From: a phage
Length of the DNA: 64,000 nucleotides
Reading direction: 5' to 3' (one strand)
Assembly (NCBI GenBank): GCA_036252695.1
Contig: GCA_036252695.1_4122.1
The position numbers were made by a program, and so were the translations under genes. Of this stretch, positions 3,118-53,521 are shown piece after piece. The notes under the pieces are model-generated. The model did no database searches, had not been told where the DNA came from, and saw nothing but the letters and a program-made list of their open reading frames with translations. The number at the start of each line of letters is the position of its first letter. The stretch's first letter is position 1.

Positions 3118-3254
3118 TATTTGTGCAAATAAAAAGCAATGTGACTTTTCCTTGATATAGGTCAAGAGAAATAACCTGTTCTGACGCTATAATGTTGTCT
3201 GGTGATATTAAATATCTTCACCCCCAGATGATTTCAAAATACAAGGAATGTACA

Positions 3255-5060: not shown

Positions 5061-5068
5061 GGTAAATT

Positions 5069-5401
5069 ATGGATTTAAAGCCAATTGTGGTTAACAAATA
5101 CAAAGAACCGTATGATGTGTATATTGGACGTGGGTCTAAATGGGGAAACCCATTTACCCATATTAAAGATAAACAAACTAAAGCCGAATTCATTGTTAGT
5201 ACAAGAGAAGAATCAATTGAAAAATTCAGAGAATACATTATTGAACGTATTTCTTGTGGAGAAGTTAAGATTGATGAATTACTTGAACTCGCAGGGAAAC
5301 GCCTTGGTTGTTTCTGTAAACCAAAATCATGTCACGGCGATGTTCTTGTCGAAATAGTGAGTGCAATATTAGATGAATTACCAGACGATAATGAAGGATG
5401 A
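5069..5401 (+). CDS. DUF4326-family protein
   Basis: Motifs YIGRGSKWGNPF and CFCKPKSCHGDVL characteristic of DUF4326; sits between nrdD and nrdG. Confidence 0.6.
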   Translation: MDLKPIVVNKYKEPYDVYIGRGSKWGNPFTHIKDKQTKAEFIVSTREESIEKFREYIIERISCGEVKIDELLELAGKRLGCFCKPKSCHGDVLVEIVSAILDELPDDNEG

Positions 5402-5843
5402 TTTAGTAAATGGAGAGGGCGTTCGCTGCTCTTTATTTGTTAGTGGGTGTTCGCACGGATGTGATGGTTGCTTCAATGAAGAAGCATGGGACTACCGAAG
5501 TGGACAAGAGTTCAGTACTGAAACAGTTGAGATTATACTACAGGAACTAAAAAAACCATATGTTAGTGGTTTGTCACTTCTAGGCGGCGATCCATTAATG
5601 AAAAAGAATATAGATGAAGTTTTAAATCTATGCAAAGTAGTTAAAGAAACTTATCCTAGTAAAACTATTTGGTGCTGGAGTGGGTATACTTTAGATGAGA
5701 TTATGAAAAATCATGCTAAAGATATACTTCAGTACTTAGATGTATTAGTTGATGGTAAGTTTATCGAGTCCGAAAAGAATTTAAAATTACCTTTCCGTGG
5801 TTCAAATAATCAAAGAATACTATATAAAAATAAAGATTTTTAA
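5373..5843 (+). CDS. nrdG: anaerobic RNR activating protein (radical SAM)
   Basis: CxxxCxxC cluster (GCSHGCDGC) and end-to-end similarity to T4 NrdG (FVNGxG, GGDPL, RGSNNQR). Confidence 0.85.
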   Translation: MNYQTIMKDDLVNGEGVRCSLFVSGCSHGCDGCFNEEAWDYRSGQEFSTETVEIILQELKKPYVSGLSLLGGDPLMKKNIDEVLNLCKVVKETYPSKTIWCWSGYTLDEIMKNHAKDILQYLDVLVDGKFIESEKNLKLPFRGSNNQRILYKNKDF

Positions 5844-5847
5844 CATA

Positions 5848-5869
5848 AGCACCCATTGGGTGCTTTTTT
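5848..5869 (+). terminator. rho-independent terminator
   Basis: AGCACCC / GGGTGCT hairpin plus T6. Confidence 0.55.
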
Positions 5870-5877
5870 GTTATGTA

Positions 5878-5885
5878 TATAAATA
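5878..5885 (+). promoter_or_regulatory. T4-type late promoter core TATAAATA
   Basis: Exact TATAAATA about 35 nt upstream of the tail-fibre start codon. Confidence 0.4.
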
Positions 5886-5919
5886 CATTAACTAATATCT
5901 AATTTATAAGGGATATATA

Positions 5920-8616
5920 ATGTCAAAGAAAATATATGGTGGCTTGGATGTCACACATAATGTGACAGTTAATGGTAAAAGAACAATACAAGGTATCAAT
6001 GATCAAGTATTTGATGCTAATGGCAATATGGAGCTAGATACTTATTCAAGAGATGAAGTACTAGATATCGTCAGTATGATGCCAATTTCCCATTATGGGT
6101 CACAAAACTATCTTCCTGCTGGTGTATCTGGTGATTTCAATGGTGCATCTGAAAACCAGTCCCAACGTAGAAATAAAATTTTATTAGAAAACGATGGTAC
6201 ACTCGTATTATTACGTAGTGGTACAAACGGTAGTGTTGAGGGATTATATTATTCATATTTGGCTAACGCATTATCAGTTGATGACATGAGCCGTACAATT
6301 AACACCAGTCGTCAATACAAGCCTGGTTTTTTCGGTTCAAATCGCGTCGCAATTGGCTTATACAATACTGATCCAAATATTTTACTCGGTAGATATGTAG
6401 ACACTTCTAACAGTACTAATGGATTGTTTATTTCTATTACTAATGGTACATTAGATGATAAATTACATACTGGTTTTTTTGTAAATCAAGCAGATATTTG
6501 CCCTGAAGGTGGTATAGAATTTGCAATGATGGCTGAAGATGGTTCAATCTATGTCTTTAGTGTTCTTAATGAAAATAACCAACTACAGTTAGTTGTTGTC
6601 CGAGTTGTATATAATATTAGCAATGGAACATATACGGCAACTCGTATTACAGGATGGACTACAAAAACATTCTATAATACAACTTATTCTGCACAGAATA
6701 ACATGGTTATTACTAATCAAGTAACTTCAACTAATATAGCAGATAAGCCTTATGTGTATGTACCACAAAACCTACGTGGTATTGGGATTTATATGACATC
6801 CATTGATTTGTATGTTGCACAGCAACCAGGAACACAGAACTTTCGTTTTAGAATGAATGGTGATGCATGGTTTACAATGGCGACATATAATGCCCGACCA
6901 CAACATAGCTACAGCTTTGCATTTAATATGAGTACTAAACAATGCACCCTAGACGCTGGGAATGACATAGGTTCATATCAAGCACCATTGGTTATAACCA
7001 ATACTGGTTCTGCATTAGTGCCTACAGGTAACGTTTTAAATAATGATCCATTATATAATCATGCTAATGCAAGAAACATTTATAGTTCTTATTTTTACTT
7101 AAGTTCAGGTGAAGCTTTTTGTACTGTGTGTCCAAACTTAGCAGAACCATTACTTATGCAAAAAGCAAAGTTTCCTATACAAATTGTTTATAGTATGATT
7201 AACGTTCGTGCAGTACAATCAACTGATTTTAAAGGTGGAGTTGTTAGACCATCCTTTGGTTCAGCAGTTGGTTCATTTATTAATGGTGTGGAGTTGTTAC
7301 CAGATAATAGTACTAAACAATATTCACGTGCGTCTGGTAGTGGTGGGTTTAGACCATCATATGCAGTTCATAAAAGTACTCCTAATTTTACATTTAAATC
7401 ATTATCTTTAGGAACCATACAAGGTTATGAACCTACAACTGAACGTGGTTATGTAGATGATAATGCCAATAATAGAATTTTCATTAGTAGTATTTCAGGT
7501 TCAACTGTAACAACTAATGGCGGTATTTTTATGGTTGGTCAACGTTATTCACAATCATTTTCATATGATAAAAACTTAAATGGTACTGGTGTTATTAGTG
7601 TTACACAATCAGTTCTAGATAACTTTAGAAATACAGAATATGCTAAAGTTCTAAGTGACTGGAACTTATCTTCACAAGCTTATCGTGATATGACATTATT
7701 TGTTCCACAACAAACTGACATTCCGGCTTTTGTTATGTTGAGTACTATAACAAATGACTATAAAAACTATATTAGAATTGCTGAAGTTAACGTTAATACT
7801 AGAGTTGGAAATATAACATCTATTACCTTTAAGCGTTTAGTACTAGAAAATACATATGGTGAAAACTTTACACCTAATGGTAATGGTTCGATTGCATCTT
7901 CTTCTGTTGGGTTAACAATTTATGATGGTGGTTCATTCTACTTCATTGGTGGTTCTGACCCATTAACACATCCAACAATAGGAAATACAGCAACTCATCA
8001 ATTTAGAGCATATGTAACTAAATCAACTGCACAATTTACAAGTTTTGTTATTACTGGTTCTCATGCCAGTTATGAACAAGGAAGACAACCCACTGCGTTG
8101 CCTGGTATTGGATTTGGTATTTTTGATCCACTGGATTATACAAATAAAATGTCATTTCAAAAATATGGAACAACGATAGCCGACTATAATAACTGGACTC
8201 CACAAGGTAGCCCAATTAACGTAGTATCACAAGACGTTGCTCAAGGGTTTATTGTTTATTTTACAGAGGAAACACCAGTTATACTATCAGGTAAGTCTTT
8301 TACACTACCAGTTTCAAATATTGATTTGAGAACTATAAAATCTAATCCAGCAAATACAACATTTTATGTATATGTTAAATTAGAACAAGGGTTGGCAAAC
8401 TACTACATAACTACTGATGTTATTTCCGAAACAGGAACAACTGCATATAATATTTTTTGGATAGGTACTATTCAAACTAACGCAATTCAAATCGAAACTA
8501 TTAATATACAAAAACGTTCACGTTTAGATATATTTGGTGCTTCACTTGAATCAGCAGGTTCATCGTTCCCAGTTAGCTACGGTCTACCATCACAAACAGG
8601 AACCATAAACTGGTAA
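5920..8616 (+). CDS. tail fibre protein (paralogue A, 898 aa)
   Basis: Large Ser/Thr/Gly/Asn-rich ORF behind a late promoter; N- and C-terminal modules shared with 9232..11961. Confidence 0.7.
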   Translation: MSKKIYGGLDVTHNVTVNGKRTIQGINDQVFDANGNMELDTYSRDEVLDIVSMMPISHYGSQNYLPAGVSGDFNGASENQSQRRNKILLENDGTLVLLRSGTNGSVEGLYYSYLANALSVDDMSRTINTSRQYKPGFFGSNRVAIGLYNTDPNILLGRYVDTSNSTNGLFISITNGTLDDKLHTGFFVNQADICPEGGIEFAMMAEDGSIYVFSVLNENNQLQLVVVRVVYNISNGTYTATRITGWTTKTFYNTTYSAQNNMVITNQVTSTNIADKPYVYVPQNLRGIGIYMTSIDLYVAQQPGTQNFRFRMNGDAWFTMATYNARPQHSYSFAFNMSTKQCTLDAGNDIGSYQAPLVITNTGSALVPTGNVLNNDPLYNHANARNIYSSYFYLSSGEAFCTVCPNLAEPLLMQKAKFPIQIVYSMINVRAVQSTDFKGGVVRPSFGSAVGSFINGVELLPDNSTKQYSRASGSGGFRPSYAVHKSTPNFTFKSLSLGTIQGYEPTTERGYVDDNANNRIFISSISGSTVTTNGGIFMVGQRYSQSFSYDKNLNGTGVISVTQSVLDNFRNTEYAKVLSDWNLSSQAYRDMTLFVPQQTDIPAFVMLSTITNDYKNYIRIAEVNVNTRVGNITSITFKRLVLENTYGENFTPNGNGSIASSSVGLTIYDGGSFYFIGGSDPLTHPTIGNTATHQFRAYVTKSTAQFTSFVITGSHASYEQGRQPTALPGIGFGIFDPLDYTNKMSFQKYGTTIADYNNWTPQGSPINVVSQDVAQGFIVYFTEETPVILSGKSFTLPVSNIDLRTIKSNPANTTFYVYVKLEQGLANYYITTDVISETGTTAYNIFWIGTIQTNAIQIETINIQKRSRLDIFGASLESAGSSFPVSYGLPSQTGTINW

Positions 8617-19182: not shown

Positions 19183-19183
19183 T

Positions 19184-19211
19184 GGGACATTATATGTTCC
19201 AATGATATAAT
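19184..19211 (+). promoter_or_regulatory. sigma70-like promoter (GGGACA-N16-TATAAT with TG extension)
   Basis: -35-like GGGACA at 19184-19189, 16-nt spacer, TGATATAAT at 19203-19211; same architecture recurs at 29933 and 48945. Confidence 0.4.
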
Positions 19212-19214
19212 GTA

Positions 19215-19735
19215 TATAGAAAATGACAACGGACATTGAAAAATGGACACTGAGAACCTACTTCTCTTGAAAATGTAAAGGATAGATGAGCTTTACCGTT
19301 GTAGCGAACAGCAGAAGAAACCTGTTAGAGTACTGGCATTTAAACAAACACGATGTAAGACCACGAATCACGGCGACACGGCTGTATAAAGAACTCCGAT
19401 AAGCATACAGAGAGTTCCTAGATAGATGTATAAGGTTCGCACCTTACCAGATTTGCTAAGGGAGTTTAAGAATAGCGGACGCAATTTTACAAGAAAGTTG
19501 CGTCCAAAATTTGAGAACAGGTACTTACTTTGATCGAATAGAGTTAGTACTGAGTGCTGTTGATGAAAAGACCAGCGACCGTTGCATATGACTGCGATAG
19601 AGAGAAACCGAGCAACCCGCTTTCGCTCTCTAAATTTTGGTACAAGAAAGATCCGTCCAAAATTTGAGAAATTCGCAATTCGATAATATCCGATGCCATC
19701 ATCGTCAAGAGAGACTTAATTGTCTCTTTTTTATT
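19215..19735 (+). ncRNA. candidate structured non-coding RNA (function unknown)
   Basis: About 0.5 kb between promoter and terminator with no ORF of 60 aa or more, higher G+C than neighbours, two near-identical 29-nt direct repeats (19488-19516 and 19641-19669) each forming a hairpin. Confidence 0.3.
19709..19733 (+). terminator. rho-independent terminator
   Basis: GAGAGAC / GTCTCT hairpin (loop TTAATT) plus T6. Confidence 0.5.
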
Positions 19736-19872
19736 ACCTTCATTCCCCTGCGGGGGGATGTAATAGTCCTCAACAAATCCCGTCAAGTTTTTAAAGTACA
19801 TTATCATTTTCAGAAGGAACTAGTTTACGAAGTAAACGCAGTGACTTCTTGAGTTACGAGAGAACGAAGTGA

Positions 19873-25768: not shown

Positions 25769-25903
25769 TGTGGTTTTTACAGTAAATATGTCTTGTAATA
25801 AAATAAAAATATGCTATACTACTTAAACATTTGAAAAGAACGTTTTTGTACTGTAGAAAGTCCGATGAGGCTTTTACAAATGGCCTCTTTGCCATCTTTG
25901 TGA

Positions 25904-26863
25904 TTGCCCATCTTAACAATCAACAAAGGAGGCGTTTTGAAACAAGCGAAAAAAGCACTGAAAACTAAGACTACTTATGGTGTTCTAGTTTGCACAGTAC
26001 TTGTCGCTGCGATTGGATTTTATGGTTTTTCTCAAAATGATCGTGTATCATCATCGGACGAAAGTCAGGTACACAATTTAAAACCACAAGTTACGCAAAT
26101 TCAAAAGCAGGAATTACCAAAGGTAGAAATATCAAAGGATGTTCCACGCGGCGAGAAGCATTATACGGTTCAACCTGGTGATAGTTATTATTCTATTGCT
26201 AAAAAGTTTAAACCTAAAAATGTACAACTTGAAGAGTATGTTATTTTGTTGAAAAATATCAATTTAAATGCTACTCTTCATACTTCTCAGGGTATCTTTA
26301 TCCCAACAAAAGAGGATTTGAAGAACGTATTGTTACCAGATGTGACTGTACTGTTTGATTATAATGATCCAGAAATTGTCAATCACATCAAAGAAGCTGA
26401 AGGTTCAATTGAATTTCAGTCCAAGAACAAACGCCGTTTACTTGGTGGGAAAGTCGGAGTTCCTTTCCACAATTCTAAATTTCATCCCTACAAGGACATG
26501 AAAGGTAATTATACAATAGGTTATGGGCATTATTTGGGTAGAAAAGAATCTGATGCGATTAAGTACAGAAACGGTATTACCAAAGCTCAAGCCAATAAAC
26601 TTTTAATGCAAGATATGAAAAGAACATATAATGACTTTTTATTATTGATGCAGAAAAAAGAAGCAGTAAATCTGACCAAAGAACAACAACGTATTCTTTA
26701 TGAAATGTCCTATACAATGGGTGTTGATAAATTAGCAACGTTTAATAAACTTTGGAAAAGTGTGAAAAATGATAACCCTAAGAAATTTAAAAAAGAAATT
26801 ATGAATTCCTTATGGTATCGTCAAGTTACAAACCGAGCAGATTTGTTGTTAAGTTCACTCTAA
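25904..26863 (+). CDS. LysM-domain lysozyme (T4 e-like, GH24) with N-terminal transmembrane anchor; start codon uncertain (TTG)
   Basis: C-terminal half matches T4 lysozyme (YKDxxGxYTIGxGH, WYxQxxNRA); LysM motif YTVQPGDSYYSIAKKF; hydrophobic helix near N-terminus; no in-frame ATG before the domain, strong AAAGGAGG at 25925-25932. Confidence 0.75.
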   Translation: MPILTINKGGVLKQAKKALKTKTTYGVLVCTVLVAAIGFYGFSQNDRVSSSDESQVHNLKPQVTQIQKQELPKVEISKDVPRGEKHYTVQPGDSYYSIAKKFKPKNVQLEEYVILLKNINLNATLHTSQGIFIPTKEDLKNVLLPDVTVLFDYNDPEIVNHIKEAEGSIEFQSKNKRRLLGGKVGVPFHNSKFHPYKDMKGNYTIGYGHYLGRKESDAIKYRNGITKAQANKLLMQDMKRTYNDFLLLMQKKEAVNLTKEQQRILYEMSYTMGVDKLATFNKLWKSVKNDNPKKFKKEIMNSLWYRQVTNRADLLLSSL

Positions 26864-34596: not shown

Positions 34597-37260
34597 ATGG
34601 CAGGAGATCTACTCTCACCTGGCGTTTCCATTTCAGTAACTGATGAAAGTATGAGTACCGCTGCTGCTCCTGGCACTGTACCACTATTTGTAATCGCTAC
34701 TGCTGAAGACAAACTTGTCCCAGGAAGCAGTGCAATTGCTGCGGGAACTACTAAAGCAAACGCTGGAAAACTACAGCTTCTAACATCACAAAAAAGCTCA
34801 CTTGATACCTATGGTACACCAATTTTTCAAATGAATAACGGTTCTGTTGTTCAAGGTGATGAACTAAACGAATATGGCCTACATGCAGTATATTCTTATC
34901 TAGGCATTACTAACCGTGCATATGTAATTCGTGCTGATATCGATCTAGCACAACTAGCACCAAGTGCTGAAGCACCAACTGGCCCAGTATCCAATGGTAC
35001 TTTGTGGTTTGATACCGCACAATCACAAGTAGAAGCGTATGTAGCGAAGAAAGATAGTCCAAGCAGTTTTTATGATTGGCAACTTAAGCCAGTAACTATT
35101 GTAAGTGCTGAAGAAGTTGAAGATGTAAGTCTAGTAGGTTTAAATGTTGATGATTTAGTTCTACGTTACAAACCAAGCAATGGTCAGATGCTAATGTATA
35201 AACGTTCTGCTTCTGGGCTAGTGCAAATGGAAACTTATCTATCACCAATTAACAAAGTTCCAGTTGGCTCAACTGTAGAAAAAGGTAACATTTGGATTCG
35301 TGATGGTTACACCCAAAATGGTTCAAACTATTTTGGTACTCGTTTTGTTATTAAACGTTATGCATCCCTAACTCAAGTTTGGAATATTGTACCAGCATAT
35401 ACTGGTAATTCATTCCAAGAAATTGAAGCGAAAAGTGGTGTACTAAACAATAGTTATATCGCATCTCGTTTTGATGAAGATAGTAAGAGTTTCTCTTTCT
35501 ATATTCAAAGTGCAAAACTAACAACAATTAGTGCTCCTGCTTTGCCACTTGGTGAAACTATTATTGAACAAGCAGGTGCTGATAGTTATATGACTTTTGT
35601 TTATTTGAATAAATCAGTTAAAGTACTAGCAGTTCCACAAGGCGGTGTTATTAATACCCAAACTATCATCAATAATCTAAATGCAAATGCTGAAATTATT
35701 AACGATGGTTTTAAATTTAAACGTGAAACTAATGGTGGTTTAGTTGTTTCCAATACAAAAGGTTACAGTTTCAAAATCACACAAAGTGGTGATGATATTT
35801 TTGCTGAATCTGAACTACAAAAACTAACAGTAGATAGTAACAACTACTCTCTAATTAACGTGAATAACTTCCGTGTTAGTTATTCAGTACCACGTAGTGT
35901 AGCAAAAGAAGGAACTCTCTGGTATGATTTCGGGAACTCCGATAATCTAACTGTAACTATGTATGTTGCTGATGTTGCTAATGATGAATGGGATCTAGTA
36001 CAAGAAGAAAACAAATATGTACAAGTTGATGAACCAGCGGCTGACCGTTTAATTTGGGTTTGTCCTTTGTCTCAAGGCATTGATGGTTATGATTTCTATC
36101 GTAACGTTGATGGTGAATGGGTTAAACTTGACAGTACTGATCAAAGTACACTAAATGGTATGATTTTCCAAGACTTTAATTTCCCAAGCCAAGTTCCTGC
36201 TGCGGCATTGTATCAAAATGGTATGCTTGCAGTTGACCTAGGTAACACTGAAGGTGTTGTTAAGAAAATGGTTAATGGTCAATGGGAAGTTGTTAGTGGT
36301 GTAAGTCTTGATGGTGCTGGCCTATTTGGTCGTGCTGCACAACGTCAACTAGTAGTTGAAGCACTAGCTGCTGTTATTATTGGTAATGATGACATTCGTT
36401 CTGAATTTATTGATTTTAACCTAATTTGTGTACCTGGTTACGTTGAAACACTTGATGAATGTGTAACTTTAAACACTGATCGTAAAGAAACTGCATTTAT
36501 TGTTACTGACGTTCCAGCACGTTTGAATCCAACCGGAAACGGTAGTGCTGTACAACAATGGGCTACTAATGCTAACAATGCACCAAGCAACGGTTCAGTT
36601 GGTCGTACAACTGCTTATGATTATGCTGCTCAGTATATGGGTTGGTGTCTAAGTACTAACGTTGATGGTGAAGAAGTTGCAGTTCCTGGTAGTACTATTG
36701 CAATGCGTACATATGCATACAGTGATAGTGTTAGTTATGTATGGTATCCACCTGCTGGTACAACTCGTGGTGTTGTAACAAACGCTGCAAGTACTGGTTT
36801 TATCAACAGCGAAGGTGAATATCAACCAGTAGTATACAACCAAGGTCAACGTGACGTTATGTATACTAACAACATTAACCCAATTGCAATGCGTCCTAAC
36901 CGTGGATTGCTTGTTTATGGAGATAAAACTCTATCTGCTAATCAAACTTCTGCACTAAGTCGTGTTAACGTTGCTCGTTTAGTTGTTTATATTCGTCGTC
37001 AACTAGAAATTATTTCCGAACCATTCCTATTCCGTTTGAATACTCCAAGTACTCGTCAGGAATTTAGTGGTGTAGTTAATAGCTTCTTGGCTGAAATTGT
37101 TCAACAACAGGGTCTTTATAACTTCGCAGTGGTTTGTGATGAAAGTAACAACACCGCAGAGCGTATTGACCGTAATGAACTTTGGATGGATATTGCAATT
37201 CAACCAACTAAGAGTATTAACTTCATTTACGTACCAATCCGTATCGAGAAAACTCAATAA
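34597..37260 (+). CDS. contractile tail sheath protein (T4 gp18 homologue)
   Basis: N-terminal LLSPGV matches gp18 LLSPGI; C-terminus VCDESNNTAERIDRNEL...IQPTKSINFIYVP matches gp18 VCDTTNNTPSVIDRNEF...IQPARSINYITLN; 887 aa, GGAGGA RBS. Confidence 0.9.
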   Translation: MAGDLLSPGVSISVTDESMSTAAAPGTVPLFVIATAEDKLVPGSSAIAAGTTKANAGKLQLLTSQKSSLDTYGTPIFQMNNGSVVQGDELNEYGLHAVYSYLGITNRAYVIRADIDLAQLAPSAEAPTGPVSNGTLWFDTAQSQVEAYVAKKDSPSSFYDWQLKPVTIVSAEEVEDVSLVGLNVDDLVLRYKPSNGQMLMYKRSASGLVQMETYLSPINKVPVGSTVEKGNIWIRDGYTQNGSNYFGTRFVIKRYASLTQVWNIVPAYTGNSFQEIEAKSGVLNNSYIASRFDEDSKSFSFYIQSAKLTTISAPALPLGETIIEQAGADSYMTFVYLNKSVKVLAVPQGGVINTQTIINNLNANAEIINDGFKFKRETNGGLVVSNTKGYSFKITQSGDDIFAESELQKLTVDSNNYSLINVNNFRVSYSVPRSVAKEGTLWYDFGNSDNLTVTMYVADVANDEWDLVQEENKYVQVDEPAADRLIWVCPLSQGIDGYDFYRNVDGEWVKLDSTDQSTLNGMIFQDFNFPSQVPAAALYQNGMLAVDLGNTEGVVKKMVNGQWEVVSGVSLDGAGLFGRAAQRQLVVEALAAVIIGNDDIRSEFIDFNLICVPGYVETLDECVTLNTDRKETAFIVTDVPARLNPTGNGSAVQQWATNANNAPSNGSVGRTTAYDYAAQYMGWCLSTNVDGEEVAVPGSTIAMRTYAYSDSVSYVWYPPAGTTRGVVTNAASTGFINSEGEYQPVVYNQGQRDVMYTNNINPIAMRPNRGLLVYGDKTLSANQTSALSRVNVARLVVYIRRQLEIISEPFLFRLNTPSTRQEFSGVVNSFLAEIVQQQGLYNFAVVCDESNNTAERIDRNELWMDIAIQPTKSINFIYVPIRIEKTQ

Positions 37261-43997: not shown

Positions 43998-44978
43998 ATG
44001 GCTAAAAAAATTAATGAAGCACAAGTTAAAATCGATATCGCAGGTTTAGAATCTGATGATTTGGAAACTCTATCACGTATGTTAGCTCTTGCTGGTCAAG
44101 CTGAACGTCAAGACCCAGTAGTTGCCGCTCCAGTACCATCTATGGGGTCTATGACTCCATCTCTTCCACCTATTGCTCCACTAGATCTCGATTCTATTGG
44201 TGCTGAAGAAGAAATTGGTGGAATTGAAACTTCAGTTGAAGACCCACTAGCAGCGGCAGTTGATGATCTTTCCGCTGATGTTGGTGATTTTGGTGCTGAC
44301 ACAGATGAAGTTAGTATGGATGCTGAATTTTCAGAACCAGGTGTAGAAGGTGAAGAAGATTTTTCTCTTGACCTTAGTGGTCAACCTCAACTAGAATCAG
44401 TTGAAGAAGACGATGAGGAAGAAGAAGAAATTATTGAAGAAGAATTCGATTTTAGTCGTATGCTATCTCTTGCTGGTATTAACGAAGAAGAAGACGAAGA
44501 TTTTTCAGTAGAGGGTAATCCTGCTACCGATAAAGAAATGAAAGATACCCAATTTCTACCAGATCTAAGTATCTCTGAAGATGAAGAACCATCTAACAGT
44601 ACTGATTATGGTCCATATGATACAGAAGCTGATGCCGTTCGTGATGGTCAACTAAAGACTAATGGTGTTGAAGGTGACCATTTTGTTGTAATTGCAAAAG
44701 GCAATCAATTTTATTGGAGACGTGTTGTAGATGAAGATCTTGACAATCGTCCAGAACCTGAGTATTATGATAATGAAGGGAACGAAAATCGTGTTCATAA
44801 ATTTGAACCAAAATTCCCAGGCACTGCATTAGGAGATAACCCACTAAATGTTAATGAAAGTGAAGAAGATGATTCACCTGAAGGTAACATTGACTTGGAA
44901 GATGATTCTGATGAAGAAGTAGAAGATATTTTTGAAAGTCTCCAAGAAAAATACAAGAAATTTTTAGGAGACAAATAA
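43998..44978 (+). CDS. hypothetical highly acidic protein
   Basis: 326 aa with long Asp/Glu runs (EEDDEEEEEIIEEEFDF). Confidence 0.55.
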   Translation: MAKKINEAQVKIDIAGLESDDLETLSRMLALAGQAERQDPVVAAPVPSMGSMTPSLPPIAPLDLDSIGAEEEIGGIETSVEDPLAAAVDDLSADVGDFGADTDEVSMDAEFSEPGVEGEEDFSLDLSGQPQLESVEEDDEEEEEIIEEEFDFSRMLSLAGINEEEDEDFSVEGNPATDKEMKDTQFLPDLSISEDEEPSNSTDYGPYDTEADAVRDGQLKTNGVEGDHFVVIAKGNQFYWRRVVDEDLDNRPEPEYYDNEGNENRVHKFEPKFPGTALGDNPLNVNESEEDDSPEGNIDLEDDSDEEVEDIFESLQEKYKKFLGDK

Positions 44979-44979
44979 T

Positions 44980-45375
44980 ATGCAATATAATTATCGTGAA
45001 CTAGTTGAAGCGTTAGACGAAATTACCGGAAGAGATGAAGACGAAAGTTTTTCAGTTGAAGTTGAATCCGATGTTGTAGCAGTTGATGTTCTTAAGGATA
45101 TTACCAAATGTCTTATTGATATTGTTGATAAGATTAAATCTGGTGAAGACCAAAAAGAAATTGTAGATAAACTACAAAAAGCCTGTGACATTTTGTCTGA
45201 CATTCGATATAATGATGAAAGTACTGAAGTTGCTGATGAAGAAGTGTTGGAAGCCATTGCAGGTTGTTTTGGAACTGAAGGTATGGGACCAACAATTGAC
45301 AAAGAAGGCGTACAACACTATAATGAGCCTGGTGCACCATCATATGCTGCACGTCAAGGTTTTGTTGGAGACTAA
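44980..45375 (+). CDS. hypothetical acidic protein
   Basis: 131-aa ORF starting right after upstream stop. Confidence 0.5.
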   Translation: MQYNYRELVEALDEITGRDEDESFSVEVESDVVAVDVLKDITKCLIDIVDKIKSGEDQKEIVDKLQKACDILSDIRYNDESTEVADEEVLEAIAGCFGTEGMGPTIDKEGVQHYNEPGAPSYAARQGFVGD

Positions 45376-45378
45376 TAT

Positions 45379-45759
45379 ATGTTTCCAGAACCATCACATA
45401 ACAGTACTGAATATCAAAATAATGTACTTTCCAAAGTTAGGGAAGTACATGAATCAGATTCAGAAATAACAGACCGTATGCTTCTGATGTCAATTTTTGA
45501 AAATTTCAGAACTGGCGGTGGTTTACGTCTTAGCAAGTTTGGGTATGGAATTTGTAAAGAAAATAATCTTTATGAATTTACAAAAATCCCCTTGCAAAGA
45601 GAATTTAAAAGTTCTATAATGTTTACATCACTTGACAGAATATGTACTTCACCTTATTATGTTGAAGGTCAGTACATATATCTGACAGATGCAATGATAA
45701 TAACTGAATTAACATTGTGTTGTGATGATTTTAAACAGTTATTTTCTATTCATATGTAA
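45379..45759 (+). CDS. hypothetical protein
   Basis: 126-aa ORF. Confidence 0.45.
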   Translation: MFPEPSHNSTEYQNNVLSKVREVHESDSEITDRMLLMSIFENFRTGGGLRLSKFGYGICKENNLYEFTKIPLQREFKSSIMFTSLDRICTSPYYVEGQYIYLTDAMIITELTLCCDDFKQLFSIHM

Positions 45760-45782
45760 GAAAAATGAATTAAAAATAAATG

Positions 45783-45810
45783 TTGACAAGATAGAATGAT
45801 GTGATACAAT
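45783..45810 (+). promoter_or_regulatory. sigma70-type promoter P1 (TTGACA-N16-TGATACAAT)
   Basis: Consensus -35, 16-nt spacer, extended -10; first of two near-identical tandem promoter copies. Confidence 0.5.
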
Positions 45811-45875
45811 AAGCATCAGACATAAAGTTTTCAAGCGACACAAGATGTGAGTTTGAAAAAAAAGAAAAAAAGTGA

Positions 45876-45903
45876 TTGACAAGTTGAAACGATGTGATAT
45901 AAT
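45876..45903 (+). promoter_or_regulatory. sigma70-type promoter P2 (TTGACA-N16-TGATATAAT)
   Basis: Second tandem copy about 93 bp downstream of P1; consensus -35 and extended -10. Confidence 0.5.
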
Positions 45904-46072
45904 GTTCACATCAAGACAGCAAAGAGATTTACCTTTTAAACACACGGATGATTCATGAAGTAACAAAGGAACTGATAAGTTAAATTATTTTAACACAGTT
46001 CCTTTACTTTTGCCCACGGATTGGCTATAATAGAAACTTAAACGATTTTATCCAACAAAAGGAAATATATAC

Positions 46073-47398
46073 ATGACTACTCAAAACGATATCCTGAACG
46101 TTAAACTGACTCCAAAGAAAGCTAAAGAAGCAATGGCACTAGCTGACATGATTCAAGATAGCCTGATGATTTGGGGTAGCCCAGGTATCGGTAAGTCTGC
46201 AATCGCTCGTCAATACGCTGATGAAAATTACCCACTGCGTAAAGATAACGTAGCTAAAATCGAGTTCATGAAACAACAAATCGAAGCTGACCCTGAAAAT
46301 GCTGATCAGCTACGCCGTGAACTGGCTGCATTTGAAGCAAAACTAATCGACCAAGATACTAACTTTATCGATTTCCGTTTGTCTCAAATCGAACCAAGTG
46401 ACCTTCGCGGTATTCCAGTACCAGAGAAGCTTTTCCGTAAAACTGACGGTTCTCTTCTGAAAGAATCTGAGCTTGCCGAAGCAAAAGATTATGTAGCTGA
46501 AACTGCGGTAGTATGGGCTGCACCTAAAGTTCTGAAATTGTCCGAAGATTGGAAAGGTGTTATTCTGTTTGACGAAATTAACTCTGCAATGCCTATTGTT
46601 CAGGCAGCGTCTTATCAGCTAATCCTCGACCGTTGTGTTGGTGAGATGAAGCTACCTAAGACTGCACTGATTCTTGCAGCAGGTAACCGTGAAACTGATG
46701 GCGGTGTAACTTTCTCTCTTGCTACACCACTGCGTGACCGTATGACTCACATTGAGATGATTCCTTATCATCAAGATTGGATTAACGATTATGCGATTGC
46801 AAAACGTTTGAACCCAGCAACTGTTGCGTTCATCAACAACACTGGTTCTAAGTACTTTAACACACTTAGTCCACAAGATCCTTCTCACAGTGGTGGTACT
46901 TCTCCACGTTCATGGGAAGCAGTAGCACGCTACGAAGATCTCAAGAAAACTAAGACAATTGATAAAGAAGTGTTCCGTGCAATGATTGCTGGTCGTGTTG
47001 GTGAAGGTGTTGCAACTGAATACATTGAGTACGTTGAGAACGTTGCTAAATTACCAGATACTATGTCTATTCTGTCTGGTGAAATCAAAGAAATCGACGC
47101 AACGCTGGATATTTCTGCGAACTACTTTATCACTCTGAACTTGGTTTATAAAATTATCGACCTGTTCAATGAGAAGCAAGAACAACGTCTACCAGTGGAA
47201 GAATGGGGTAAACTGTGTAACAACTTCATCACCTTCCTAGACCATAACTTCTCTGCAACTCAAGCAGAACTGGCAGTACTGGCAATTCGTACCATCACGC
47301 TTCATAAGGTTGCGATTTCCATTAAAGATGTACCAGCGTTTAAAGATTTCATCGCTAAGTACTCTGATCTTGTACGTAAAGCACGCTCTCTTGGCTAA
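46073..47398 (+). CDS. AAA+ ATPase, MoxR-like
   Basis: Walker A GSPGIGKS, Walker B ILFDEIN, sensor AAGN; strong RBS; elevated G+C and CGT/CTG codon preference relative to neighbours. Confidence 0.8.
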   Translation: MTTQNDILNVKLTPKKAKEAMALADMIQDSLMIWGSPGIGKSAIARQYADENYPLRKDNVAKIEFMKQQIEADPENADQLRRELAAFEAKLIDQDTNFIDFRLSQIEPSDLRGIPVPEKLFRKTDGSLLKESELAEAKDYVAETAVVWAAPKVLKLSEDWKGVILFDEINSAMPIVQAASYQLILDRCVGEMKLPKTALILAAGNRETDGGVTFSLATPLRDRMTHIEMIPYHQDWINDYAIAKRLNPATVAFINNTGSKYFNTLSPQDPSHSGGTSPRSWEAVARYEDLKKTKTIDKEVFRAMIAGRVGEGVATEYIEYVENVAKLPDTMSILSGEIKEIDATLDISANYFITLNLVYKIIDLFNEKQEQRLPVEEWGKLCNNFITFLDHNFSATQAELAVLAIRTITLHKVAISIKDVPAFKDFIAKYSDLVRKARSLG

Positions 47399-47419
47399 TT
47401 AACAAAGAGTTGTTGACAA

Positions 47420-47449
47420 GAAGGATGCCTAATGGTATCCTTCTTTTAT
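47420..47449 (+). terminator. rho-independent terminator
   Basis: GAAGGAT / ATCCTTC hairpin followed by TTTTAT. Confidence 0.5.
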
Positions 47450-47472
47450 CTTAACTAAACGAGGAAATATAC

Positions 47473-48897
47473 ATGTCAGATAACAAATCTACTTCAAGAT
47501 TCAATGAAGTATCTCCGGCACTCCAGAAAGAATGTCAAGATCGTCTGGTTCTGGCTCGTACATCTTTGATGTTAACTGCACCATTCTTTGGTGTACTCGC
47601 TTCACGTTTACGTCCAGTTCCTAATAATACATGGTGTCGTACTCTAGCAGTTGATGGTAAACATCTATTCTACAACGTAGAATTTGTAATGGGTATTCAA
47701 GACCCATCTAAAAAGAAAGAATATGAAGAAGCTATTCGTGAAAAGCATCCTGAAGTTACAGACGAACAATTAAAAGAAATGACTGAAGGTTTGACTGATG
47801 AAAACCTTATTGCTGTAATTTGTCATGAAATTCTACACTGTGCTTACGATCACTTCCTTCGTCGTGGTATGCGTGATCCACAACGTTATAACCGTGCAGC
47901 GGATTATGCCATTAACCAAATCATCGTTCGTGAGAAAATTGGAAAAATCCAAAGTTCATGGTTGTATGATAAAAAATATGAAGGTATGACCGCAGAAGAG
48001 ATTTACATTCTTCTTGAAGAAGAAGAACAAAAAGAAGATGGTGAAGGTGAAGGTCAACCACAAAGTGGTGGCGGTGAAGGTGAAGGTAAAAATCGCGGTA
48101 CTTTTGGCGATATTAAAGATGGTAAGGGTAAACCAAAAGGTACTACCATTGACCAGCATGACGTTCCACAAGAAGGTCAAGAAGGTGGTTCAAGTGAACA
48201 GCAAAAACGTGATTATATGGATGATTTCAAAACAGCAATGATGAATGCTGCACGTGCAGGTGGTACACCAGCAGAAATCGCTCGTATGATTAACAACTTT
48301 AAAGAACCAAAGATTGACTGGCGTTCAAAACTTCAACGTACACTTCGTAGTTGGTTGAAGTCTGATGCAACGTATCAAAGTCCTTCTCGTCGTTCATGGG
48401 GTGCTGGTTTTGGTTCTAATGGTTCATTCTATGGTAATCCAATTTACCCAGGGATGAAACCAGATGATGATATTGATATTGCGATTGCACTAGATGCTTC
48501 TGGGTCTATTTCTGAAGATATGCTTCGTGATTTCATTAGTGAAGTTCTTGGCATCACTAAACAATTCAAACAGTTTAAGATTCGTATCATGACTTTTGAT
48601 ACTGAAGTTTATACTGTAAAGGATTACAAAACTGGCGAAGAACGTAAGATTCTGGAATATCCAGTAAAAGGTGGTGGTGGTACTGACTTTGAAGCAGTAT
48701 GGGTTCATATGAAGAACGACAACTACAAGCCTAAACAGCTTGTAATGTTTACTGATGGTGAACCGTGGCAGTCATGGGGTGATCCAAACTACTGTAAAAC
48801 ACTGTTCGTGATTCACAGTAACCCAAATAAAGTTGCACCATTTGGTGAGACTGTACACTACGAATATGAAGCTGATAAAAAGCGTCAACGTAGTTAA
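47473..48897 (+). CDS. VWA-domain protein with N-terminal HExxH metallopeptidase-like motif (partner of the AAA+ ATPase)
   Basis: HEILHCAYDH motif in N-terminal half; MIDAS-like DASGS (IALDASGSIS) in C-terminal half; Gly/Glu-rich linker. Confidence 0.75.
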   Translation: MSDNKSTSRFNEVSPALQKECQDRLVLARTSLMLTAPFFGVLASRLRPVPNNTWCRTLAVDGKHLFYNVEFVMGIQDPSKKKEYEEAIREKHPEVTDEQLKEMTEGLTDENLIAVICHEILHCAYDHFLRRGMRDPQRYNRAADYAINQIIVREKIGKIQSSWLYDKKYEGMTAEEIYILLEEEEQKEDGEGEGQPQSGGGEGEGKNRGTFGDIKDGKGKPKGTTIDQHDVPQEGQEGGSSEQQKRDYMDDFKTAMMNAARAGGTPAEIARMINNFKEPKIDWRSKLQRTLRSWLKSDATYQSPSRRSWGAGFGSNGSFYGNPIYPGMKPDDDIDIAIALDASGSISEDMLRDFISEVLGITKQFKQFKIRIMTFDTEVYTVKDYKTGEERKILEYPVKGGGGTDFEAVWVHMKNDNYKPKQLVMFTDGEPWQSWGDPNYCKTLFVIHSNPNKVAPFGETVHYEYEADKKRQRS

Positions 48898-48907
48898 GTA
48901 CTAAATA

Positions 48908-48940
48908 AAGAGAACGGAATTTTCCGTTCTCTTCTTTTAT
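48908..48940 (+). terminator. rho-independent terminator
   Basis: AAGAGAACGG / CCGTTCTCTT hairpin plus T-run. Confidence 0.55.
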
Positions 48941-48944
48941 AAGT

Positions 48945-48972
48945 GGGACAACTTATAAAAATATGATATAAT
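48945..48972 (+). promoter_or_regulatory. sigma70-like promoter (GTGGGACA-N16-TGATATAAT)
   Basis: Third copy of the GGGACA-N16-TATAAT architecture. Confidence 0.4.
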
Positions 48973-49006
48973 AGTTAATGTACCAATATACATGGAGAGT
49001 ATTAAA

Positions 49007-49252
49007 ATGGAACAAGAAAATAATCAAATTCAACTAACCCTTCTAGACCTAATCAATGCTGCAAAAATCATGGAAGCTGCTGTTGCACGAAACACCTTTA
49101 AAGTTGAAGAACTTGTTGAGGTTGCTCCAGTTGTATCTAAATTTGTTTCTTTTGCAAATGTAGCTCTTGAAGATATTAAAGCACAAGAAGATGCAGCTAA
49201 AGAAGAAGCTGAATCACAAGATAGTGAAACTCAAGAAGATAAAGGAGAATAA
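49007..49252 (+). CDS. hypothetical acidic protein
   Basis: ORF track 48992; ATG at 49007 follows GGAGAG. Confidence 0.45.
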   Translation: MEQENNQIQLTLLDLINAAKIMEAAVARNTFKVEELVEVAPVVSKFVSFANVALEDIKAQEDAAKEEAESQDSETQEDKGE

Positions 49253-49254
49253 TT

Positions 49255-49911
49255 ATGGCAGCTATTCGTCATGTTGGTGTAATGCGTAATACAGGTTCTC
49301 GTGTTTTTGTTGTTTGGCGTTCACTACCAGATGATCCTGAACACTGCCTTATCGTTTATCGTGATTCACTACCAGAAGCATATGTTCACGCAGTAACTGA
49401 TATTGTTATGGGTCATGGTCAATCTAATATTGATTTGTGGGAAGTAATGCATAAAATTGGTTATCTCGATGGACGCAAAATGCTAGATGTTCTACACAAC
49501 ATGCAGCATCTACGTCGCGTTCGTACTTGTGACATTGATATGCACACTGGTGGTAATAATAAAATTTCTCTTGATGTTCTAAACAAAGCATTAGATGAAA
49601 ATCAAGCGAAAGTACAAGAAGATGGTAAAGTAAAAGACTTTAACCCATTCAATCCACAAGAAGCGGACACTAAAGTAGAAGAAGCTACTATTGTAGAACA
49701 ACTTCTCACTGATGCACAAAAATATGAAAAACTGGCTAAAGAACATTATGAACGTGCATATAATTTAGAGCCAAGCTTGCGTCCGCAAACACAAGTTGTT
49801 GAACAACCGAAAGATAGTAAAACAATTTATCTAGAAATTCCAGAAGGTATTTCACAGACTAAAGCTATTGAGAAAGTAAAACAACTATTTGCAGAACGTA
49901 AAGCAAAATAA
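49255..49911 (+). CDS. hypothetical protein
   Basis: 218-aa ORF with AAGGAGA RBS. Confidence 0.5.
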   Translation: MAAIRHVGVMRNTGSRVFVVWRSLPDDPEHCLIVYRDSLPEAYVHAVTDIVMGHGQSNIDLWEVMHKIGYLDGRKMLDVLHNMQHLRRVRTCDIDMHTGGNNKISLDVLNKALDENQAKVQEDGKVKDFNPFNPQEADTKVEEATIVEQLLTDAQKYEKLAKEHYERAYNLEPSLRPQTQVVEQPKDSKTIYLEIPEGISQTKAIEKVKQLFAERKAK

Positions 49912-49914
49912 AAT

Positions 49915-50508
49915 ATGAAAAAGAATGAATTAGATGAAGCAATTAAAGGTTTATCTAATGTATGTTTTAGTGGCGGGGCAGCAGGTGCTGACCGCCTTTT
50001 TTCTATCTATGCAAAAAATAATGGATTTGAAGTTATTAATTTTTCATTCAAAGGTCATGAGCATAGTGTAGATGAAAGTACTATATTAGAAATACCATCC
50101 AATATTCTATCTGATATTTCTATATTAAATCAACTAAACATTGCATGTTACTCGTTGCAGCGAAAAGTACCAAAACCTGGTTCTTATGTTTACAACTTAC
50201 TTGCAAGGAATAGTTATCAGATACTTAATACAGAAAGAATATATTGTATTGCAAATATCACATCACCAACTAAGGTAAGTGGTGGTACTGCATGGGCAGT
50301 ACAGATGTATATGGATTCAGTTGAAAATCCTGAAATTTATTGTTATGATATGAATTCACGTTCAGTATTTTATTTCGATACAGTACTGAAAGAGTTCACA
50401 CAAACATTCGTCGTTCCAGCACCACATGGTAACTGGACTGGTATTGGTTCACGCAATGCCACCGAAAAACATATGGAACATTTTATTACATTTTTCAAGG
50501 AAGAATAA
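49915..50508 (+). CDS. DprA/Smf-like (SLOG-type Rossmann) protein, tentative
   Basis: GGAAGAD near N-terminus, LLARNSYQI and SGGTAWAVQMY resemble the DprA G.ARGID, FP.RNR and SGS..TA motifs; directly upstream of td with ATGA overlap. Confidence 0.4.
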   Translation: MKKNELDEAIKGLSNVCFSGGAAGADRLFSIYAKNNGFEVINFSFKGHEHSVDESTILEIPSNILSDISILNQLNIACYSLQRKVPKPGSYVYNLLARNSYQILNTERIYCIANITSPTKVSGGTAWAVQMYMDSVENPEIYCYDMNSRSVFYFDTVLKEFTQTFVVPAPHGNWTGIGSRNATEKHMEHFITFFKEE

Positions 50509-51437
50509 TGAAACAACTACAAGAACTATATCAAAAAATTCTAGATGAAGGCGTAGAAAGCGTTGACCGTACTGGTGTTGGAACAATCAAACTTATCGGT
50601 CAACAAATGCGTTTTGACCTTAAAGATGGTTTCCCAGCAGTGACGACAAAACGTCTAGCTTGGAAAGCAATGACTTCAGAATTACTATGGTTTATTGAAG
50701 GTTCCCATGATGAGCGTCGCCTTTGTGAAATTTTGCATGGAACTCGTGATACAGAAAAGAAAACTATTTGGACAGATAATTACCTAAATCAAGGCGTTGC
50801 TCTTGGTTATACTGATGGTGAGTTAGGTCCAGTGTATGGTAAGCAATGGCGTGAATGGGAAGATTATAAATTTAGTTCCAGTACTGAAGAAATTCAAGAA
50901 TTAAAAGATAAAGGATACAAAGTTATCGATTATACTGGTTCACATGGTGTTGTTATGAAACGTACAACTGACCAATTACAAGAACTAATCAAAGGTATAA
51001 AGTCCGACCCATATGGTCGTCGCCACATTCTAAGTGCATGGAACGTTGGTGAGCTTGATGATATGACGTTGCCACCTTGTCATAGCTTTGTGCAATTTTG
51101 TGTAGTACAAGGGAAACTAAGCTGCATTCTACATCAACGCTCCGCTGATCTATTTTTAGGAGTTCCATTTAATATCAGTAGTTACTCACTACTAACTCAT
51201 ATGATTGCACAAATTACTGGTTTAGATGTTGGTGAATTTATTTGGAATGGTGGTGATTGTCACATTTATAAAAACCACGTTGAACAAGTAAAAGAACAAC
51301 TACAGCGAAAACCTCGTGAATTACCTGAATTGTGGCTTGATCCTACAATTACTAATATTGAAGATTTCACAATGGATTCTTTCAAATTAGTGAATTACAA
51401 CCCAATGCCAACAATTAAAGCACCGATGGCTGTATAA
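50508..51437 (+). CDS. td: thymidylate synthase (ThyA-type)
   Basis: Canonical motifs DRTGVGT, GPVYGKQWR, LPPCH, QRSADLFLGVPFNISSYSLL; uninterrupted ORF. Confidence 0.9.
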   Translation: MKQLQELYQKILDEGVESVDRTGVGTIKLIGQQMRFDLKDGFPAVTTKRLAWKAMTSELLWFIEGSHDERRLCEILHGTRDTEKKTIWTDNYLNQGVALGYTDGELGPVYGKQWREWEDYKFSSSTEEIQELKDKGYKVIDYTGSHGVVMKRTTDQLQELIKGIKSDPYGRRHILSAWNVGELDDMTLPPCHSFVQFCVVQGKLSCILHQRSADLFLGVPFNISSYSLLTHMIAQITGLDVGEFIWNGGDCHIYKNHVEQVKEQLQRKPRELPELWLDPTITNIEDFTMDSFKLVNYNPMPTIKAPMAV

Positions 51438-51444
51438 ACGAAAA

Positions 51445-51471
51445 GGGAGAACATTAGTTCTCCCTTTTTTT
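51445..51471. terminator. bidirectional rho-independent terminator between convergent gene blocks
   Basis: GGGAGAAC / GTTCTCCC hairpin with flanking A-run and T7; lies between td (+) and the first minus-strand fibre gene. Confidence 0.55.
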
Positions 51472-53437: not shown

Positions 53438-53489
53438 TTAAATATTTCCTCAGAATAGATTTATATGATGTATTTATTTTAGTTAAAAG

Positions 53490-53516
53490 AAAAGGCCAAG
53501 CATAGGCTTGACCTTA
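53490..53516 (-). terminator. rho-independent terminator (minus strand)
   Basis: Imperfect hairpin (GGTCAAGCC / GCTTGGCC on minus strand) followed by T-run on minus strand. Confidence 0.4.
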
Positions 53517-53521
53517 AAAAA

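Follow-up and report, generated by a model that had tools for sequence, protein, structure and literature searches.

What does a MoxR-like AAA+ ATPase do in a bacteriophage when it is encoded beside a protein that carries both a VWA domain and an HExxH motif? The question is raised by a gene pair in a 64,000-nucleotide stretch of phage DNA (contig GCA_036252695.1_4122.1, hereafter the window), where the original prediction, made from the letters of the DNA, placed such a pair at positions 45783–48897. The pair consists of an ATPase of 441 amino acids (46073–47398) and a DUF2201 partner of 474 amino acids (47473–48897), both on the + strand, as are all of the promoters, hairpins, terminators and downstream genes X and Y described below. 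Our answer is tentative and somewhat short of even confidence. The two proteins may form a phage MoxR-type remodelling and processing machine that finds its client via the MIDAS of the partner, and the likeliest client would be a large phage-made assembly.

The region 45700–48950 was 99.8% identical to Escherichia phages vB_EcoM_G17, Sharanji, 121Q and phAPEC6, and 87–94% identical to other members of the genus Asteriusvirus. Because of the 99.8% match to G17, 121Q and phAPEC6, the window can be assigned to a Rak2-like jumbo coliphage (~350 kb) of this genus. The ATPase (PHROG 1297, N4 gp24-like) corresponds to 121Q gp563, phAPEC6 gp265c and RaK2 gp053, which are recorded as 'ATPase', 'MoxR ATPase' and 'gp24-like', respectively. 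The partner (PHROG 1314, N4 gp25-like) corresponds to 121Q gp564, named 'Zn-dependent hydrolase' or 'HNH endonuclease', and to phAPEC6 gp264c, named 'N4 gp25-like protein', and is 'gp25-like' in RaK2. As the orthologues are annotated as N4 gp24/gp25-like and the pair is described by Iyer et al. (2021), it is not novel as a kind. The earlier statement that the substrate of such phage pairs is unknown still holds, but the pair is not the unrecognised oddity it was taken for, as it is the N4 gp24/gp25 core pair and was already recorded in these jumbo phages (PMC7824862, PMC4193335).

From jumbo phages of 'group 2.2', Iyer et al. (Viruses 13:63, PMC7824862) describe a chaperone pair of MoxR and vWA proteins that includes a fused metallopeptidase. 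The system, the type of phage and the reading of the domains all agree with those here. By analogy with the Acidianus two-tailed virus, those authors propose that the pair helps to assemble the virion and also processes proteins by cleavage. Their description is comparative and covers the two genes, and its available text does not mention a cassette, a leader, codon adaptation or a link to thymidylate synthase. What is added here is a four-gene cassette, a conserved leader, a host-type codon adaptation common to RaK2, and a recurrent thymidylate synthase neighbourhood.

Pfam profile and fold searches confirmed the assignment of the two proteins as a MoxR-like AAA+ ATPase and a VWA/HExxH protein of the DUF2201 type. 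In the ATPase, the GSPGIGKS and DEIN motifs that had been noted are present as Walker A (residues 35–42) and Walker B (FDEIN, residues 166–170), and both are conserved. Among 46 homologues with identities down to ~32%, G35, G38, K41, S42 and E168 were invariant, as were N205, R223 and R279, and D167 was found in at least 90%. The ATPase itself passed only the generic Pfam AAA model (21.3 bits, cut-off 21.2). Its score against AAA_3 (MoxR) was 16.7 bits, under the cut-off of 27, and AAA_5 was not among the matches listed. Homologues at 28–33% identity carry both AAA_3 (PF07726) and AAA_5 (PF07728), and the nearest folds were those of solved MoxR members. Sequence and profile searches of the PDB returned P-loop-level matches only and no significant solved relative. 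The C-terminus is a helical domain of ~160 amino acids that had no Pfam family match. No NCBIfam model matched the ATPase or the partner.

The partner is made up of an N-terminal HExxH zincin-like domain, a disordered Gly/Glu-rich linker at approximately residues 190–240 and a C-terminal VWA domain with a complete MIDAS. Both DUF2201 models (PF13203 and PF09967) were above their gathering scores, DUF2201_N with 119.5 bits against 23.2 (E 2.7e-34) and the DUF2201 VWA-like domain with 75.1 bits against 26.4 (E 7e-21). The HExxH motif (HEILH, residues 118–122) and the MIDAS-like DASGS motif (residues 341–345) were as originally predicted. In 45 homologues, down to ~43% identity, H118, E119 and H122 were invariant, and the MIDAS set D341, S343, S345, T404 and D428 was complete and invariant on the VWA fold. 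Candidate third zinc ligands are H127, which is conserved in at least 90% and gives HExxHxxxxH, and the invariant D144. Matches to the N-terminal domain were weak, namely PhageMetallopep (E 0.006), Peptidase_M48 (E 0.04) and the MJ1213 chain (E 0.59). We take MJ1213 to be a minimal metallopeptidase (minigluzincin), a point on which the search output is silent. In fold searches with the partner all of the matches listed fell to the VWA domain. The name 'HNH endonuclease', which is attached to PHROG 1314 and to many GenBank records, was considered and rejected, as Pfam shows only DUF2201_N, DUF2201 and VWA models. The name seems to be a misannotation that has spread between records, possibly prompted by the HExxH region.

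The conserved unit does not end at 48897, as had been proposed, but extends to 49911. The partner gene is directly followed by X (49007–49252, PHROG 13789), which encodes an 81-amino-acid helical protein with disordered acidic tails, and X is directly followed by Y (49255–49911, PHROG 15894, phAPEC6 gp262c), which encodes a protein of 218 amino acids with no known fold. We scanned 80 IMG/VR loci containing a relative of the partner at 36–100% identity, and counted those with enough flanking sequence. In 51 of 52 viral loci the ATPase gene lay on the same strand as the partner gene and directly upstream of it. X followed the partner in 47 of 49 and Y was present in 48 of 49, always in this order. 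The conserved unit is thus a nearly invariant MoxR-VWA-X-Y cassette and not a simple pair. Pairwise homology to one metagenomic contig was detectable for X (E 8e-11) and Y (E 1e-16). X has a conserved helical core of ~50 amino acids (LTVQDL..IIDVA..RGAFK..E...VG..Y.KL..FL) flanked by disordered tails in which Ala, Glu and Gln are abundant, and Y has a conserved N-terminal domain of ~115 amino acids. No relative of known function was found for Y, there was no Pfam domain in Y or in 70 homologues, and PDB searches gave nothing significant. BLASTP and profile hidden Markov model searches did not find X or Y beside the pair in the N4-like phage G7C or in one rV5-like phage. The open reading frames (ORFs) of ~100 amino acids that follow Y in RaK2 and in the metagenome contig showed no homology to each other.

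Using tblastn, with different E-value limits for the two proteins, the partner was found in 618 phage records and the ATPase in 343. Carriers include Rak2-like jumbo phages, PA5oct, Atu_ph07, Bacillus phage G, rV5-like, PVP-SE1-like and CR3/CR8-like myoviruses, and N4-like podoviruses. The place of the cassette was kept in all six Rak2-like lineages checked (five with a genus name from the International Committee on Taxonomy of Viruses), and in the most distant of these the ATPase and VWA proteins were down to 55–60% identity. In the rV5-like phage EduardKellenberger the DUF2201 and MoxR genes (1159–7455) were not adjacent but ~3.6 kb apart on opposite strands, and an 'anti-sigma factor' is annotated directly upstream of the DUF2201 gene.

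The N4 gp24/gp25 pair of the Schitoviridae is among the closest known systems. Its ATPase is homologous (~29% identity, E 3e-21 to N4-like phages), as is its DUF2201 protein, and the two genes are likewise adjacent, on the same strand and near thymidylate synthase. The jumbo phage proteins are longer (441 versus ~350 and 474 versus ~390 amino acids), and the X and Y genes that follow the jumbo phage pair were not detected in the N4-like neighbourhood. Gp24 and gp25 belong to the only 14 genes that form the core set in N4-like phages and are middle genes, read by phage RNA polymerase II, whereas the jumbo phage pair lies behind sigma-70 consensus promoters (PMC4193335).

The neighbourhood suggests another answer, namely that the complex is an activase for nucleotide metabolism that matures or reactivates an enzyme or multi-enzyme complex of deoxynucleoside triphosphate synthesis or of replication. 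A thymidylate synthase gene was found 2–4 kb downstream in 14 of the 49 loci, in nine cases ThyA and in five the unrelated ThyX, which is a non-orthologous replacement in the same position. In the window, a single stretch from one promoter to one terminator (48945–51469) holds X, Y, a SLOG/DprA-like gene and ThyA, in continuation of the VWA gene. In G7C the order is gp24, gp25, dCTP deaminase, then ThyA and further on rIIA, all middle genes (PMC4193335), and in Delftia phage RG-2014 a dUTPase gene follows the VWA gene. Most of the characterised MoxR-VWA pairs serve metalloenzymes (NorQD, CbbQO and CoxDE, as well as the chelatases BchID and CobST). Promoters of an early type and the co-purification of ThyA with the ATPase and Y in phAPEC6 preparations, both described below, point the same way. 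However, an invariant HExxH domain would be unexpected in a pure activase, neither ThyA nor ThyX needs a metal centre, and thymidylate synthase was near only 29% of the loci, a raw rate with no background for other phage genes. The synteny could also be historical rather than functional, and we regard an activase as unlikely. The SLOG/DprA-like gene between Y and ThyA (49915–50508; PHROG 768, E 1e-26, with a weak YAcAr match) was in the same position in RaK2, BF, Yen9-04 and GAP32, and was seen only in the five closest of the 49 loci.

The two near-identical tandem promoters reported upstream of the ATPase gene (TTGACA-N16-TA(C/T)AAT with an extended -10) were confirmed by consensus scoring and by the presence of a direct repeat. 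P1 (45763–45810 including an A-rich upstream tract; -35 TTGACA at 45783–45788, extended -10 TGATACAAT at 45802–45810) is TTGACA-16-TACAAT, with 11 of 12 consensus positions and the TG. P2 (45856–45903; -35 at 45876–45881, extended -10 TGATATAAT at 45895–45903) is TTGACA-16-TATAAT, with 12 of 12 and the TG. P1 (45783–45810) and P2 (45876–45903) are identical at 23 of 28 positions and lie within a 48-nucleotide direct repeat (71% identity, spacing 93) that includes the A-rich upstream tract. The extended pattern TTGACAAG-N11-TGATAYAAT occurred exactly only at P1 and P2 in the 64 kb, and even with three mismatches tolerated only ~1.4 matches are expected. P1 was kept in all Asteriusvirus sequences aligned and also in RaK2 and Muenster. 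P2 occurred in all Asteriusvirus sequences but in neither RaK2 nor Muenster, which makes it a duplication specific to that lineage.

Each gene also has its own terminator, as predicted. One lies at the junction of the ATPase and VWA genes (47418–47445), with no good promoter after it and with an equivalent hairpin and T run in RaK2, Munch and BF (annotated in Munch). The other is 3' of the VWA gene (48908–48933) and is annotated in G17 and UE-S1. By their consensus hexamers and 16–18-nucleotide spacing, and by their GC-rich hairpins with a T run, respectively, these promoters and terminators are predicted to be of the sigma-70 and intrinsic types.

Although the promoters are indeed upstream, the genes are not directly behind them. 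A terminator-like hairpin (45965–46012; arms 45965–74 and 45996–46005, followed by ACUUUUG) with a perfect 10-bp stem and an inner stem intervenes, and in G17 an ARNOLD terminator is annotated between P2 and the ATPase start. Next is a small hairpin with GGA in its loop (46012–46025; GCC-CACGGAUU-GGC), and a promoter-like site, P3 (46003–46031; TTTACT-17-TATAAT, 10 of 12), lies downstream of the main hairpin and is overlapped by the 3' arm of the GGA-loop hairpin. The position of P3 reads TGGTATAAT in JNE01 and Hallingskeid. Upstream regions from Asteriusvirus, RaK2/Muenster, Munch/PHA46, Hallingskeid, BF, Yen9-04 and GAP32 were aligned, and all share the same architecture, with a strong promoter, 45–100 nucleotides, a hairpin and U tract, and a short (N)GGA(U)-loop hairpin. 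The promoter itself is not the same in all lineages. Asteriusvirus has two TTGACA promoters and RaK2 has one, Munch has TTGGGACA-N-TGTGATATAAT, and BF, Yen9-04 and GAP32 have an A tract with TGGTATAAT.

The main stem was kept through compensatory changes in RaK2, Munch, Hallingskeid, BF, Yen9-04 and GAP32 (GGAACUG/CAGUUCC, GGCACUG/CAGUGCC, AGCACUG/CAGUGCU and GGACUG/CAGUCC). MAFFT misaligned its 5' arms, and these changes were read by hand, with formal pair counts made for the second hairpin only. For the GGA-loop hairpin, conserved in 10 sequences from the six Rak2-like lineages, 82.5% of cells were paired versus 69.8% after shuffling, and covariation was 0.383 versus 0.136, with one of 500 shuffles equally high. 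One of its pairs varies as C-G, A-U and U-A. The whole leader folded better than shuffled sequence (z -4.1). Searches of Rfam found nothing meaningful on the leader and no family at the gathering score in the whole window. As a conserved terminator-like hairpin follows the promoters, they may not simply drive the genes, and the leader resembles a regulated attenuator, or else the gene of a short RNA with read-through. CsrA is a protein whose binding sites are of this type, with GGA in the loop of a hairpin. A GGA within the Shine-Dalgarno sequence was seen in some lineages only. A pairing of ACCUUUU (45931–37) with AAAAGGA (46057–63), seen in the minimum-free-energy fold and invariant in Asteriusvirus and RaK2, would sequester the Shine-Dalgarno sequence. 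It is absent from other genera and was kept as a weak idea only.

Promoter-like sites were also surveyed across the window. There were 12 strong sigma-70-like matches (at least 11 of 12), all on the + strand, compared with 4.2 +/- 2.1 in both-strand shuffles. Six of the 12 were in the 1.2 kb before the MoxR gene (44740–45903), four of them inside coding sequences, including a perfect 12 of 12 match at 45296–45324. A second, phage-specific class, (GT)GGGACA-16-TATAAT with TG, i.e. TGATATAAT, was found at 19183–19212, at 29933–29960 and ahead of X (48945–48972). In Salmonella phage Munch this GGGACA class is upstream of both the MoxR gene and X, where the promoter before MoxR in Asteriusvirus is a TTGACA one. 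Late-promoter motifs like those of T4 (TATAAATA or close variants, for example CATATAAATC) were found in the regions upstream of several structural genes (5844–5919, 32459–32704 and 53438–53521). The MoxR leader in Asteriusvirus is without a TATAAATA-like motif, with TATAATAG there, and RaK2 has CATATAAAC at that spot.

It had also been claimed that both genes have a higher G+C and a CGT/CTG/GAA codon preference like that of the sheath gene. The two genes were compared with the 36 other ORFs of at least 150 amino acids in the window, using E. coli weights for the codon adaptation index (CAI; Sharp and Li 1987), with absolute values that are approximate and ranks that are robust. The ATPase gene was first in G+C (0.422, z +3.1), in G+C at third codon positions (GC3; 0.344, z +3.1) and in CAI (0.464, z +4.4). 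For the partner gene the G+C was less extreme (0.391, z +1.9) and the GC3 ordinary (0.240, z +0.7), but the CAI was again high (0.410, z +3.3). No other ORF in the set reached the CAI of either gene, so the pair does differ from its neighbours. The CAI of X and Y was also raised (0.35, compared with a mean of 0.255).

The claim held for CGT, mainly in the ATPase gene for CTG (41% of Leu codons, compared with 15% in the partner and 5% in the background) and not for GAA (75% in the ATPase gene, background 85%). The two genes avoid AGA, ATA, GGA and TTA and prefer CGT, GGT, ACT, TCT, AAC, TAC, TTC and ATC. The ATPase gene contains no AGA, AGG, CGA, ATA, GGA or GGG, TTA makes up 2% of its Leu codons compared with 35% elsewhere, AAC (85% versus 31%) and TCT (67% versus 24%) are strongly favoured, and ATC, TAC and TTC are raised. 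The likeness to the sheath gene (34597–37260) failed, as that gene has a CAI of 0.319, a GC3 of 0.19, no CTG, 55% CTA among its Leu codons and 49% AGT among its Ser codons. The genome has two codon dialects, and late genes may be adapted to the tRNAs of the phage and early genes to those of the host. A search of the 64-kb window for tRNA genes to account for the dialects found none.

Such a pattern is of the kind that translational selection towards the major tRNAs of the host would be expected to produce. An opposing explanation is that the composition has nothing to do with expression, and that the genes are a recent import from a genome with a higher G+C, with the upstream promoters mainly making a short non-coding RNA that ends at the hairpin. 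The G+C above that of the neighbours, the conserved terminator-like hairpin after the promoters, and the moron-like appearance of a cassette with its own promoters and terminators are consistent with this. However, the bias does not follow G+C. Optimal codons that end in T and two-fold codons that end in C become commoner, and the G/C-ending four-fold codons GCC, GGC, CCG, GTG and ACC stay rare in the ATPase gene, so its bias is not simply due to a higher G+C. First codon positions account for half of the excess (0.56 versus 0.47), and this half is therefore an effect of amino-acid content. In RaK2 the orthologues, compared with 48 kb of that genome, were again outliers (ATPase CAI 0.50, z +4.9; partner 0.41, z +3.1), while in phages Munch and BF the outlier status was weak. 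Because the same bias is found in RaK2, the place of the cassette is kept in six Rak2-like lineages and the proteins have diverged to 55–60% identity, any acquisition was old. A recent import is highly unlikely. The very high expression originally suggested is a reasonable inference from the codon bias, which is repeated in RaK2, and from the ATPase peptides found in phAPEC6 virion preparations (PMC7247149).

Expression in the first minutes of infection, to which host sigma-70 consensus promoters and host-like codons point, would also suit host takeover or counter-defence, in which an early-made complex captures and cleaves a host protein or complex. Proteases directed to their targets by a binding domain are common weapons. 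Bacterial conflict systems make use of MoxR-vWA couples (PMC7159879), but no PADLOC family matched the ATPase or the partner at E values up to 0.01. The pair is also tightly linked to two further phage-specific proteins, and it is a core pair in phages of Roseobacter, Pseudomonas, Vibrio, Enterobacteriaceae and Bacillus (PMC4193335), whereas conflict genes are usually variable. We consider a role in host takeover quite improbable.

Returning to the remodelling and processing machine, its working can be pictured from better-known relatives. By analogy with NorQ-NorD, CbbQ-CbbO, RavA-ViaA and midasin, the ATPase would assemble into a ring that is probably hexameric. The partner would dock on the ring, the Mg2+ of its MIDAS would grip an acidic residue of the client protein, and ATP hydrolysis would remodel the client. 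As the partner also has, on a flexible linker, a zincin-like domain with an invariant HExxH, the client would probably be cut too while it is held. X and Y are most likely dedicated adaptors or first clients. Expression would be early and strong, given the host sigma-70 promoters and host-adapted codons, and would be gated by the conserved leader, with its terminator-like hairpin followed by the GGA-loop hairpin. The terminator between the two genes would keep ATPase output above that of the VWA protein. The stoichiometry in such complexes is about 6:1. An excess of ATPase over adaptor would fit this ratio, the stronger codon adaptation of the ATPase gene and the detection of the ATPase without its partner in virion preparations.

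The known systems are like the phage pair in part only. NorQ-NorD and CbbQ-CbbO share ~14% sequence identity with it, and the phage ATPase has the ~160-amino-acid helical C-terminal domain and extra insertions. NorD and CbbO are without an HExxH domain, and the clients are metalloenzymes or Rubisco. RavA-ViaA of E. coli is also a MoxR ATPase and VWA partner encoded in one operon, with the VWA protein far scarcer than the ATPase (PMC3893208), but it has no detectable direct sequence match and no peptidase domain, and it belongs to the host, works in stationary phase and has respiratory complexes as its target. The MoxR-vWA of the Acidianus two-tailed virus is, as cited in PMC7824862, the only viral one with experimental support and is tied to virion morphogenesis (tail development), but this is an archaeal virus and the protein is without the fused peptidase.

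A check of whether the proteins are ordinary structural proteins was possible using the phAPEC6 virion proteome (PMC7247149). Mass spectrometry of virions detected gp265c, the ATPase (6 peptides, 19% coverage), gp262c, i.e. Y (1 peptide), and gp259c, the thymidylate synthase (3 peptides), while gp264c, the VWA partner, was absent from the list. As a nucleotide-metabolism enzyme is in the same list, the peptides are read as co-purified abundant proteins or a large complex and not as proof of a structural role, and the list settles the question neither way. The main text of the RaK2 paper is silent on the presence of gp053 and gp054 in virions. In the literature no transcriptome or gene-essentiality data were found for the gp24/gp25-type family. 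CRISPRi-ART and phage transposon sequencing (Tn-seq) papers contained no data on these genes, and the Sharanji paper reports no transcriptome.

As to the client of the remodelling machine, virion parts, as proposed by Iyer et al., or another abundant complex would be the most probable class, and a host protein would be less likely. A phage-made assembly ranks above a link to nucleotide metabolism, which in turn ranks above host takeover. In Asteriusvirus, virion structural genes adjoin the pair (G17 record). Several observations weigh against this preference. In the 121Q record, flanking genes are tagged 'structural protein' and the ATPase and partner are without that tag. Their early sigma-70 promoters and host-like codons are unlike those of the neighbouring structural genes, several of which have TATAAATA-like motifs upstream and, in the sheath gene, a preference for CTA, and the N4-like pair in G7C consists of middle genes beside dCTP deaminase and ThyA. 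Early promoters, host-like codons and the N4 middle-gene status together fit a role in the replication phase better than one in virion assembly. X and Y are not universal partners, since they were not found beside the pair in N4-like and rV5-like phages. Sequence, profile and fold searches of solved structures gave no significant relative for the N-terminal domain of the partner, so the peptidase label comes from the motif and the DUF profile only. No experimental datum on activity, client, timing or essentiality was found for any member of the family. In a variant that we consider doubtful, the pair is half of a four-protein machine that is kept as a block in a large clade of jumbo and uncultured phages. 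It would act in the replication phase on X, Y or the neighbours involved in thymidylate (dTMP) synthesis and not on the virion, at a level set by the attenuator-type leader, which a host RNA-binding regulator such as CsrA may read.

Two other elements in the window were examined. At 19183–19872, a 690-nucleotide segment with no long ORF lies behind a GTGGGACA-N-TGATATAAT promoter. Its folding is better than that of shuffled sequence (z -4.0), and within it CGTCCAAAATTTGAGAA is exactly repeated, at 19501 and 19654. In 72 Rak2-like phage records the segment was found at ~4 places in each genome. Its identity is 99.3% in BF17, compared with only 87% for the MoxR region there, and ~70% in Erwinia and Yersinia phages, and no Rfam family matched. 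This segment looks like a conserved, multi-copy, structured non-coding element. The ORF gap at 25769–26497 (729 nucleotides) is an artefact of an ATG-only caller, and a gene with a non-ATG start (ggaggcgttTTGaaacaagcg...) for a membrane-anchored protein appears to be located there.

The gp24/gp25-type pair is among the very few genes common to N4-like podoviruses, rV5-like myoviruses and Rak2-like jumbo phages. The widespread name 'HNH endonuclease' for the partner protein is wrong and should be corrected. X and Y are candidate clients or adaptors for the study of the pair, and the proximity of thymidylate synthase offers a concrete alternative to the idea of a virion assembly chaperone. The cassette, its conserved and apparently regulated leader and the Thy neighbourhood make the pair a tractable target.

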